From NCBI GenBank assembly GCA_040752415.1, contig JBFMGU010000178.1, positions 1 to 22,348 on the forward strand: 22,348 nt of DNA, given 5' to 3'. Shown piece by piece: positions 18,290-21,256 of this stretch. The stretch is from Myxococcota bacterium. GTDB lineage: Bacteria; Myxococcota; JACRCW01. Positions within the stretch are counted from its first letter, which is position 1; each line of letters opens with the position of its first letter. The position numbers and the translations under genes are program-made. The notes beneath the pieces are model-generated. The model was not told the origin of the DNA, did not search any database, and was given only the letters and a program-made list of their open reading frames with translations.

Positions 18290-19303
18290 TCACACCGTGG
18301 CGTGCACGCCCGACGCGGACCGCACGCCAAGCCCCGCCCGACGCTCGATGTAATCCACGAAGCGCACGAACGGGTCGAACCCGACGAGGCGCGGCGCGTC
18401 GGTGACGAAGTTGCTGAGCGAGTTGATGTCGTAGATGTAGATCTGACCGTCCCGCTCACTCTCCAGGTACTCCACCCCACCCACGTCGAGACCGCCCGCA
18501 CGCGTGGCGCGCAGCACGGCGTCCACCACCCAGTCCGGCGCCGTGGTGGCCTCGATCTTGCGCGCCTTCTTGCCGGCGGTGGGCGCAGCGCAGAACGCGA
18601 AGTCGTCGTCGCTCGTCGTCGGTGCGGGGGCGGGGACCTGGCAGATGTCGGCGGGGCAGAGGTTGAAGCCCTCGTCGGGGTCGTTGTGGATGCGGATGGC
18701 GTAGAGCTGGCGGTTGTCCAGCACCTCCACGCGCACAATCGAGCCGCCCTTGAGCGGGTGGTACTCCTGCACAATCGCCGTGGCGTCGACGCCGAGGATG
18801 CCGTTCAGCTCGCCGGCCGCATGCGCCGCACGCAATTCCTCGACGCTGCCAAACCGCCGCATCAGCGCGCCGCTCCCGCCAATGTTGGGCTTCACCATCA
18901 CCGGGAAGCTCAGCTGCAGCGCCGCCCCGACGATCTGGTCCACGTGATTCACCACCCGGCTGCGCGGGTGCGGAATGCCCAGCTTGGCAAGGAGGCTCAG
19001 CTGCAGGCTCTTGCTCAGCTCCAGCCCATACGCCGCCGTCCCATTCACCACCGGCACGCCCACGCTCTCAAGGTGACCCAGGTACTGCTGCGCCGCGAAG
19101 ATCGCGTGCCCGTGCCCCCGCAGGTACGACGACGGACTCATCCGGTTCACCACCACGCTGTATGGCGAGCTGCGCGCGGACGGGTCGAAGGAGAGCTCGT
19201 GCGCGAGGATCCGCTCGTAGGAGAGCCCACGTCGGTCCAGCTCAGCGAACAGGGGAATGAACCACTCGGGGTGTTCGTACAGGATGCCAATGGGCTTGCT
19301 CAT
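18290..19303 (-). CDS. RimK-like ATP-grasp ligase
   Basis: VVNRMSPSS, PVVNG, SKSLQ, FPVMVKPNIGGSG, IVQEY, GGVEYL, YIYDINSLSNF; GGAG RBS. Confidence 0.88.
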   Translation of the reverse strand: MSKPIGILYEHPEWFIPLFAELDRRGLSYERILAHELSFDPSARSSPYSVVVNRMSPSSYLRGHGHAIFAAQQYLGHLESVGVPVVNGTAAYGLELSKSLQLSLLAKLGIPHPRSRVVNHVDQIVGAALQLSFPVMVKPNIGGSGALMRRFGSVEELRAAHAAGELNGILGVDATAIVQEYHPLKGGSIVRVEVLDNRQLYAIRIHNDPDEGFNLCPADICQVPAPAPTTSDDDFAFCAAPTAGKKARKIEATTAPDWVVDAVLRATRAGGLDVGGVEYLESERDGQIYIYDINSLSNFVTDAPRLVGFDPFVRFVDYIERRAGLGVRSASGVHATV

Positions 19304-19581
19304 GGGTGACTCCGTTATAGCGGATCCGTCATGTTGACAGGGTGTCCGTAGCAGCGGAGGCCGCCAAGCTCAAGACGGAAATCGAGCGCCGAGTCAGTTG
19401 GAGTGGTGAATCCCGCTCTTGGGCTCTCCGTGCCCACGACCACGGAGGCCGGCGTATGCGGGGACGCGTCCTGACCACGGGTTCGCAAAGGCGTTGGTGA
19501 GGGCGTGACAACAGGGCCCGCGGCTGGCTTGCGGAGGCGATGGGGCCCACGTCGGCGGGGGGCACCTCCTCCCCGGCGGCT

Positions 19582-19623
19582 CTCTCACGATTATCGTGAC
19601 ATATGTCTCGATTATCGTGACAT
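19582..19623. repeat. Two tandem 21-bp near-palindromes
   Basis: CTCTCACGATTATCGTGACAT followed by ATGTCTCGATTATCGTGACAT; AT-rich island in GC-rich intergenic DNA. Confidence 0.85.
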
Positions 19624-19795
19624 GGCCGGCAACGCCCCATCCCCCTTGGCGTTCGAACCATGGGGCATGTTTCGCTTGCCTGCGCTCACACGCCAGGTCC
19701 GGCTGGCGCCGCGCTCCGTCCCGCCATCGTCGAGGCAGCGCGACGATTCCGCGAGCCCGCCGTCACCCCCTCCCAACGCCTTTCAGGCTCCGATG

Positions 19796-20272
19796 TCAGC
19801 GAGGATATCGACGGGAAGACGCCGTCACCGCAGTCGCGCGCGCCACGGCACGCGTGAGCACCACCAGCAGCTTCTCCGTCGTGGGAAGGGTTGCGGCTTC
19901 GCGCAGCGTGAAGAAGCGGGCGTCGGACACGTCGGAGCCGGCGCGCAGTGTGCCGCCCAGCTCGGTGCACACGTAGTCCATGACCACGAAGTGATGGCGC
20001 ACGCCGTCCGCGTCACGCTCCACGCGCTCGTACACGCAGGACAGTGGCCCCACGCGCACGCGCAGCCCGGTCTCCTCGAGGATCTCGCGCGCGGTGGCCT
20101 GCCGCAGCGTCTCTCCCAGCTCCACGCGACCGCCCGGCAACGACCACAGCCCCTTGGCAGGCTCTCGTGCGCGCTGGATGAGCAGCACCCGGTCTCCGCG
20201 CAGGATGATGCCGCCCACGCCCACCACGGGTTGTCGAGGTGGAGCCTTGCGTCCTGGTGCTGGTTTGCGCAT
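19796..20272 (-). CDS. Nudix hydrolase (ADP-ribose pyrophosphatase/YjhB-like, 158 aa)
   Basis: PVVGVGGII, VLLIQR, WSLPGGRVELGETLRQATAREILEETGL (intact Nudix box), AGSDVSDARF; the real portion of ORF 19796..21217. Confidence 0.9.
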   Translation of the reverse strand: MRKPAPGRKAPPRQPVVGVGGIILRGDRVLLIQRAREPAKGLWSLPGGRVELGETLRQATAREILEETGLRVRVGPLSCVYERVERDADGVRHHFVVMDYVCTELGGTLRAGSDVSDARFFTLREAATLPTTEKLLVVLTRAVARATAVTASSRRYPR

Positions 20273-20311
20273 ATGGCACCCGACGGGCCTGGAGTGCCCT
20301 TGGGAGCTACC

Positions 20312-20539
20312 ATGAAAGCCACCATCAAGTACTGCGGGGTTTGAAACTACCTCCCACGCGCCGCGGGTCTCGCGGCGGAGCTCAAGAAGGAATTCAACGC
20401 CGAGGTGGAGCTGGTTGAGGGCTCCGGCGGCGTGTTCGAGGTCACCGTCGACGGCAAGGAAGTGTTCAGCAAGCACAAGGTGAAGCGACACGCCAGCCCC
20501 GGTGAGGTGGTGGCGGCCATCCGCGCGCAGCAGCAATGA
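20312..20539 (+). CDS. SelW/SelT/SelH (Rdx family) selenoprotein, 75 aa, TGA at codon 11 read as Sec
   Basis: GGGAG RBS; translation MKATIKYCGV-U-NYLPRAAGLAAELKKEFNAEVELVEGSGGVFEVTVDGKEVFSKHKVKRHASPGEVVAAIRAQQQ; CxxU and GGVFEV/VFSK Rdx motifs. Confidence 0.93.
20351..20380 (+). promoter_or_regulatory. Bacterial SECIS-like hairpin
   Basis: Stem CGCCGCG (20359-20365), loop GGTCT, CGCGGCG (20371-20377), lower CTC/GAG pair; the loop starts 21 nt after the in-frame TGA. Confidence 0.75.
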
Positions 20540-20578
20540 CGGTTGACGGTTGGCATGCGGGCTGCTCCTTTGCGGGGC

Positions 20579-21256
20579 ATGTCCGTCGAGAAGCCAGCAA
20601 CGTTGCGGAAACACGTCGAGGCCGCGGGGTGGATGCACGTGGGGGCAGCCGCGATGTGGCTGGGGTTCACCGCCGCCGTGTTGGAGTGGACACGCTCCAT
20701 TCCCGCGGACGCTTGTGATTGCCAGTATCCTCCGTCGGGATTCGTTTTCGGGTTTGGCGGCACGTCGCTCGCGTTGGCCTCCATGGCGACGGCCTGGACC
20801 GCGGTGCTCCACTCCGCATGCGCGTGGCGTCGGGCTGTCTCTCCCATGGCACAGCTGCGCGACGCCACGCTGGCCCTGTTGATGGCTGTCCCGCTCCTGG
20901 GAGCGCCACGCCTGCGCCGGCTCGTCGCGGAGCTGGAGGAGGAGGTTGTCGACGAGCTGGCGTGGCGGTGGCGCGGCAGCTCCTTCGGCAACACCGCGAT
21001 GTGGACCGAGGTCATTGCCGTGGGCGTCATGGTCCTGGTCAGCGTGCTGGCGCACGGCGGGGACTCGGCGTTGGTGCAATGGGTCTACGCCACGTCGATG
21101 GTGCTGGGCGTGGGCGCGGTGCTGGTGATGCGCGCGTTGGTGCATCTGCGACTGGTGCCGTTGTTGCGCGCGCTGCAGCGACGACGGGATCCGCCCGTGG
21201 TGCGCGGGTCGCGTCATCTGCCCGTGGCCGGGGGTGGGGTCTACGAGGAGCTGTGA
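20579..21256 (+). CDS. Hypothetical membrane protein
   Basis: Four to five hydrophobic segments; fills the gap between the selenoprotein and the convergent gene; start uncertain (TTG 20543 possible). Confidence 0.55.
   Translation: MSVEKPATLRKHVEAAGWMHVGAAAMWLGFTAAVLEWTRSIPADACDCQYPPSGFVFGFGGTSLALASMATAWTAVLHSACAWRRAVSPMAQLRDATLALLMAVPLLGAPRLRRLVAELEEEVVDELAWRWRGSSFGNTAMWTEVIAVGVMVLVSVLAHGGDSALVQWVYATSMVLGVGAVLVMRALVHLRLVPLLRALQRRRDPPVVRGSRHLPVAGGGVYEEL

Follow-up and report, generated by a model that had tools for sequence, protein, structure and literature searches.

The interval from 20312 to 20539 on the forward strand of the window, the 22,348-nucleotide stretch of Myxococcota DNA analyzed here, almost certainly encodes a SelW-like protein of the Rdx (SelT/SelW/SelH) family, with a thioredoxin-like fold and with selenocysteine (Sec) specified by the UGA at codon 11. 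The reading of this in-frame TGA as selenocysteine, proposed in the initial annotation of the sequence, is supported by the conservation of the TGA among homologues, by the selenocysteine machinery encoded in the genome and by a conserved hairpin behind the codon. The gene is an ordinary member of a long-known and widespread selenoprotein family.

The selW-like gene, identified from its translation and from profile matches, consists of 75 codons and a stop codon. Its ATG start codon (20312 to 20314, forward strand) is preceded at a distance of 5 nt by a Shine-Dalgarno-like GGGAG (20302 to 20306, forward strand), found by direct reading of the sequence. The encoded N terminus is M-K-A-T-I-K-Y-C-G-V, with Y-C-G-V at codons 7 to 10, followed by the TGA of codon 11 (20342 to 20344, forward strand). 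The frame then stays open for 64 codons (12 to 75), through the motifs GSGGVFEV and VFSK, up to the true stop codon, which is also TGA (20537 to 20539, forward strand); homologues end within a few residues of the same point. The initial annotation had described a ribosome-binding site, an ATG, YCGV followed by TGA, 64 further codons and the two motifs, and each was found where it had been placed. The strong GC bias at third codon positions (GC3) that it had noted is likewise present, at 0.80 upstream and 0.88 downstream of the TGA, with values of 0.66, 0.39 and 0.84 at codon positions 1, 2 and 3 of the whole frame. An open frame alone is little evidence in this window, which is GC rich (0.687, or 68.7%, overall) and has long open reading frames (ORFs) in all six frames. 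The selW-like frame is beyond chance since the match of its 75-aa read-through product to Pfam Rdx (PF10262; E value, 1.7e-18; 67 bits against a cut-off of 22.6) covers residues 4 to 71, on both sides of the TGA. Two spurious long ORFs span the selW-like gene and the neighboring Nudix gene, one of 473 aa on the reverse strand (19796 to 21217) and one of 279 aa on the forward strand (19505 to 20344); these antisense and sense ORFs are artefacts of high GC content and could mislead ORF-based annotation.

The assignment to the Rdx/SelW family, originally made from motifs, holds when the read-through protein is compared with profile models, as Rdx/SelW models are matched above their curated cut-offs. 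In addition to PF10262, these are NCBIfam NF041051, "SelT/SelW/SelH family (seleno)protein" (96.4 bits against 88, spanning profile positions 2 to 69 of 70), and TIGR02174, CXXU_selWTH (61 bits against 34.2). When genomes were searched in six frames, the selW-like gene of the window scored 87.8 bits against NF041051, right at the cut-off of 88, which just 2 of the 301 phylum genomes searched exceeded; copies in this phylum are thus borderline for NF041051 and clear for the family. A search of solved structures matched eight distinct Rdx-family chains, the best being 2fa8_A (E value, 1.1e-8). The redox motif C-G-V-U (Cys8 to Sec11; 20333 to 20344, forward strand) was located by alignment with the CxxC of 2fa8, 3dex and 2ojl, in which YCGVU lies against YCTQC and the TGA codon stands opposite the second Cys. 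The expected correspondence of the TGA to that Cys was therefore observed in solved homologues, and it recurs in database proteins, with Cys at the position in 21 of 39 aligned homologues.

An AlphaFold model of the read-through protein, built with 39 homologues, has a mean pLDDT of 95.4 and a pTM of 0.81. Its elements (strand 2 to 8, helix 14 to 28, strands 31 to 37, 42 to 46 and 49 to 53, and helix 65 to 74) form a thioredoxin-like beta-alpha-beta-beta-beta-alpha fold with C8-x-x-U11 at the junction of strand 1 and helix 1. Foldseek searches with the model ranked bacterial SelW-related proteins first (TMq, 0.84 to 0.90; rmsd, 1.2 to 1.7; for 2fa8, 0.88 and 1.2), followed by MIEN1 and mouse SelW (2npb; TMq, 0.66) and then by thioredoxins and glutaredoxins.

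Under translation table 11, the ORF listing splits the gene into a frame that ends at 20344 and a 44-aa ORF with a GTG start (20405 to 20539). Translation might accordingly be thought to stop at the TGA and the locus to yield only this shorter protein from the GTG at 20405, and databases do contain many such N-terminally truncated forms. We consider this very improbable. The ten codons before the TGA are conserved as protein, behind a ribosome-binding site and an ATG, in all relatives examined (M-K-x-x-I-x-Y-C-x-x); homologues begin M-K-x-x-I-x-Y-C, as does the protein of the window, and the family profile match starts at residue 4. Judged on the model, the 44-aa product would be without strand 1, the redox motif and most of helix 1. 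The truncated database entries agree with the earlier prediction that gene callers would split such a gene: four near relatives in the protein database are 53 to 67 aa long and begin after the TGA, and among the 150 matches listed, at least 31 proteins begin at query residue 11 or later.

The TGA is conserved well beyond the window. Among 41 related genomes, all five matches carry one TGA at C-x-x-TGA, in the same aligned position. When 301 genomes of the phylum were searched for the family, 133 gave matches, amounting to 140 match rows; 131 rows (one of them from an unpublished genome, G195) have one in-frame TGA, and the other nine are Cys forms without it. In named genomes, 60 loci were recovered, of which 58 have TGA, one has TGC and one (L113) is cut by a contig end. 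The 58 TGA loci span Gemmatimonadales, Acidobacteriota/Thermoanaerobaculia, Methylomirabilota, Chloroflexota, Actinomycetes, Bacillota, Polyangiaceae and others. A single base separates TGA from TGC or TGT, the family includes Cys forms (9 of the 140 phylum matches and 21 of the 39 aligned database homologues) and the assembly is a draft; on these grounds a Cys codon could have become TGA by nonsense mutation or been misread as TGA in sequencing, which would make the locus a pseudogene or a CxxC Rdx gene called wrongly. Against this, the TGA occupies the same codon in 131 of 140 phylum matches and 58 of 60 named-genome loci with both flanks intact as coding sequence, TGA is also present in a second copy of the gene elsewhere in the genome, a conserved hairpin follows the codon and GC3 remains high downstream. 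Because the TGA and both its flanks are conserved, mutation or error was excluded, and we leave it a negligible probability.

The second copy is a SelW-like paralogue on contig C25 (15841 to 16056; genome G000) that is 52% identical to the protein of the window and reads Y-C-G-A-TGA; in its hairpin all seven pairs form and the loop is 3 nt long (GUC, within AGUCU). Sec and Cys forms also occur in tandem at loci L056 to L060, in five of five genomes of one genus, g52 (G205, G270, G069, G166 and G189). There the Cys form reads C-x-T-C-N-Y and lies a few hundred bases from the Sec form; this is a natural Sec/Cys paralogue pair.

The initial annotation had held that the organism has the selenocysteine trait, and the genome does contain selA, selB, selC and selD. 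The assembly is an 11.0-Mb draft of 520 contigs (96.8% complete, 4.29% contamination), in which all four genes lie on contigs other than that of the window; the GC content of these loci, 0.69 to 0.73, is similar to that of the window. Each gene scored above the curated cut-off: selA at 531 bits, selB at 283.5 bits in a 691-aa ORF, selD at 304.7 bits and tRNA-Sec (selC) at 73.8 bits, with the anticodon given as tca by ARAGORN. The SelB protein carries SelB-wing_2 and SelB-wing_3 domains, which are SECIS-binding winged helices. The selD frame (contig C171, 7395 to 8327; genome G000) contains one in-frame TGA near the N terminus, in the motif SGG-U-AAK; selD is another selenoprotein gene of the same genome and would be broken by standard callers.

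The frames of selA and selB are open and have no internal TGA. This bears on a further explanation, in which TGA is generally a sense codon in this organism, for Trp or Gly (tables 4 or 25), or is read through by some means other than the Sec pathway. In its favor, the column aligned with the Sec position in the 39 database homologues contains Trp in 18 proteins as well as Cys in 21; these homologues are short proteins picked from the 150 listed matches for a match starting at query residue 1 to 5, a selection that leaves aside other listed matches starting there. Cys8 is kept in 38 of the 39. Several of the Trp-bearing homologues also have a C-terminal extension that begins with W, as would be expected if a real TGA stop had been read as Trp, and the combination would fit gene callers that translate TGA as Trp. 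General reassignment is further opposed by the selW-like gene itself, which terminates with TGA where its homologues also end, and by the presence of a tRNA-Sec with anticodon tca together with the full selA, selB and selD set. It was rejected because the gene itself ends in TGA and the selA and selB frames contain no internal TGA; there is scarcely any chance that it is correct.

A bacterial SECIS-like hairpin lies inside the coding sequence (20359 to 20377, forward strand), identified from folding and comparative pairing. It begins 14 nt past the UGA and has a 7-bp stem (20359 to 20365 with 20371 to 20377) and the loop GGUCU (20366 to 20370). In the window alone, the 60 nt after the UGA show no folding advantage over dinucleotide shuffles (z = 0.29; 118 of 200 shuffles equal or better), so the case for the hairpin is purely comparative. 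An Rfam scan of positions 20200 to 20700, with E values up to 10, returned no family, only two chance-level matches far below their gathering scores (Atu_Ti3, 14.5 bits; flavi_FSE, 11.3 bits).

Across 33 Sec forms, standard pairs fill 89.6% of cells, compared with 68.3 ± 1.7% in shuffles (0 of 500 shuffles reach the observed value), although the sequences are related to one another and these statistics overstate their independence. Stem partners slid out of register give 22 to 54%. Five of the seven pairs show changes on both sides (covariation score, 0.499 versus 0.114), loop position G26 is invariant and U27 is present in at least 90%. The hairpin overlaps the conserved peptide RAAGLAAE, and part of its conservation could be protein driven; the pairs persist despite changes in the encoded peptide (AAGLAA, ASSLQA, AARVAA and ATRAAA). 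The 33 Sec forms retain 5 to 7 of the 7 pairs (mean, 6.27), whereas eight Cys forms retain 0, 3, 3, 3, 3, 4, 4 and 7 (mean, 3.38), in counts that omit L026, L051 and the Cys copy of L060, which the extraction pattern missed. The four recovered Cys paralogues that adjoin Sec paralogues in the L056 to L060 group have 3 or 4 of 7 pairs. For 58 loci from other phyla (L113, cut by the contig end, being excluded), 57 retain five or more of the seven pairs, and the loop reads GGUCU in 42.

One Cys form, L032 (genome G162, contig C109, 27861 to 28064), reads C-A-P-C-G-Y with TGC at the Sec position and has 7 of 7 pairs and a GGUCU loop. The hairpin is therefore not strictly confined to Sec forms. L032 looks like a recent replacement of Sec by Cys with a leftover SECIS.

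The selW-like gene is divergent from a Nudix hydrolase gene (19799 to 20272, reverse strand; PF00293; E value, 6.6e-22), beyond which lies a gene for an ATP-grasp protein (18293 to 19303). The start codons of the Nudix and selW-like genes are 39 nt apart (20273 to 20311), and with only this distance between divergent starts, the promoters must overlap coding regions. Downstream is an ORF (20555 to 21253) that, like three other ORFs, had no match in the Pfam search. The divergent Nudix neighbor is shared with genome G001 but does not recur elsewhere. Of 31 loci scanned for a Nudix-box pattern within about 1.5 kb of flanking sequence, only 2 had one; the neighborhood gives no functional clue.

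Bacterial SelW-like CXXU selenoproteins have been in print since 2005 (passages of PMC1088965 and PMC1794560), and NCBI has a curated "(seleno)protein" model. In the passages of PMC1088965 concerned, the family outnumbers all other selenoprotein families in the Sargasso Sea data, with 48 genes and seven Cys homologues, and its SECIS hairpins have a conserved G in the loop. The corresponding passages of PMC1794560 list it for 10 completely sequenced bacterial genomes, Geobacter sulfurreducens and Desulfotalea psychrophila among them, and report very few Cys homologues in Sec-using organisms, a pattern matched here by the 131 Sec forms among 140 phylum matches. As far as these descriptions go, the gene of the window shares with the published proteins a small size, an N-terminal CXXU, an in-frame UGA and a downstream hairpin whose small apical loop has a conserved G (PMC1088965, PMC1794560). 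It shows no difference of substance from them and is another member, from a large (11 Mb) GC-rich genome. The NF041051 model (SelTWH_Campy, 70 positions, equivalog) covers this short form, at 96.4 against 88 bits.

The Cys-type Rdx structures (2fa8, Agrobacterium Atu0228; 2oka; 2obk; 2ojl; 3dex; 2p0g) have the same fold (TMq, 0.84 to 0.90), with YCxxC at the motif position of YCGVU. They are about 100 to 108 aa long, have Trp after CxxC (CTQCNW/CRW) and share 26 to 37% identity in structural alignment; the protein of the window differs in its 75-aa length, its Sec and the N-Y after its motif. Mammalian SelW (2npb) and MIEN1 (2ljk) belong to the same Rdx family and have a thioredoxin-like fold with CxxU/CxxC at the start of helix 1, but they match more weakly, at sequence E values of 8.2e-4 and 4e-4 and TMq values of 0.66 to 0.72. 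The SECIS of eukaryotic SelW is of a different kind and lies in the 3′ untranslated region, according to a figure legend (PMC1088965, Figure 7), whereas the element in the window is inside the coding sequence. In the bacterial SECIS of the E. coli fdhF type, the hairpin lies inside the ORF, directly 3′ of the UGA, and its small apical loop contains G and U. The hairpin of the window resembles it in placement and in the loop G and U, a SelB with C-terminal winged-helix domains being present, and differs from it in sequence.

In bacterial selenocysteine incorporation, SelD makes selenophosphate, SelA turns Ser-tRNA(Sec) into Sec-tRNA(Sec), and SelB-GTP binds both Sec-tRNA(Sec) and, through its C-terminal winged helices, the hairpin 3′ of the UGA, bringing Sec to the ribosome. 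We infer that the UGA at 20342 to 20344 is decoded in this way, as selenocysteine rather than as a stop. The GGUCU hairpin 14 nt downstream would recruit SelB loaded with Sec-tRNA(Sec) to the ribosome, with selC providing tRNA(Sec) and selA and selD the enzymes that would load it, all encoded in the genome. The second TGA (20537 to 20539), which in the frame of the gene family has no such hairpin behind it, would cause termination. The position of CxxU at the N terminus of helix 1 in a thioredoxin-like fold points to a thiol-dependent oxidoreductase. The product is most likely a small enzyme of this kind, as predicted from family resemblance, motif and fold, and would cycle through a Cys8-Sec11 selenylsulfide. 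A redox function of bacterial SelW-like proteins was likewise proposed from the conserved CXXU in a passage of PMC1088965, whose authors call the function unclear.

The protein of the window is closest by identity to copies from Gemmatimonadales and Acidobacteriota metagenome-assembled genomes (MAGs; L064 to L071), at 60 to 68%, and its identity to the copy in G001, the only other genome of its own family, is on par with these at 64%. Identity of this level with copies from other phyla suggests either strong constraint or horizontal transfer. A short Sec-containing SelW with a built-in SECIS (encoding RAAGLAAE) might be a self-contained, horizontally mobile selenoprotein cassette, an idea we regard as speculative and rather unlikely; the high identity may arise simply from the dual constraint, on RNA and on protein, acting on 75 residues. 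If the mobile cassette were real, a single hairpin would function with SelB proteins from phyla very distant from one another.

The gene brings no biological novelty, since the SelW-like family has been known since about 2005, as have its CXXU motif and the SECIS in its coding region. Its importance lies mainly in annotation, as the standard code splits the gene, whose correct product has 75 aa and carries Sec at residue 11, and protein databases hold the family largely in damaged form, as N-terminally truncated copies or with W at the Sec position. For the organism, the finding indicates that selenocysteine is in use, given the machinery present, a selD with its own UGA and a second SelW-like gene.
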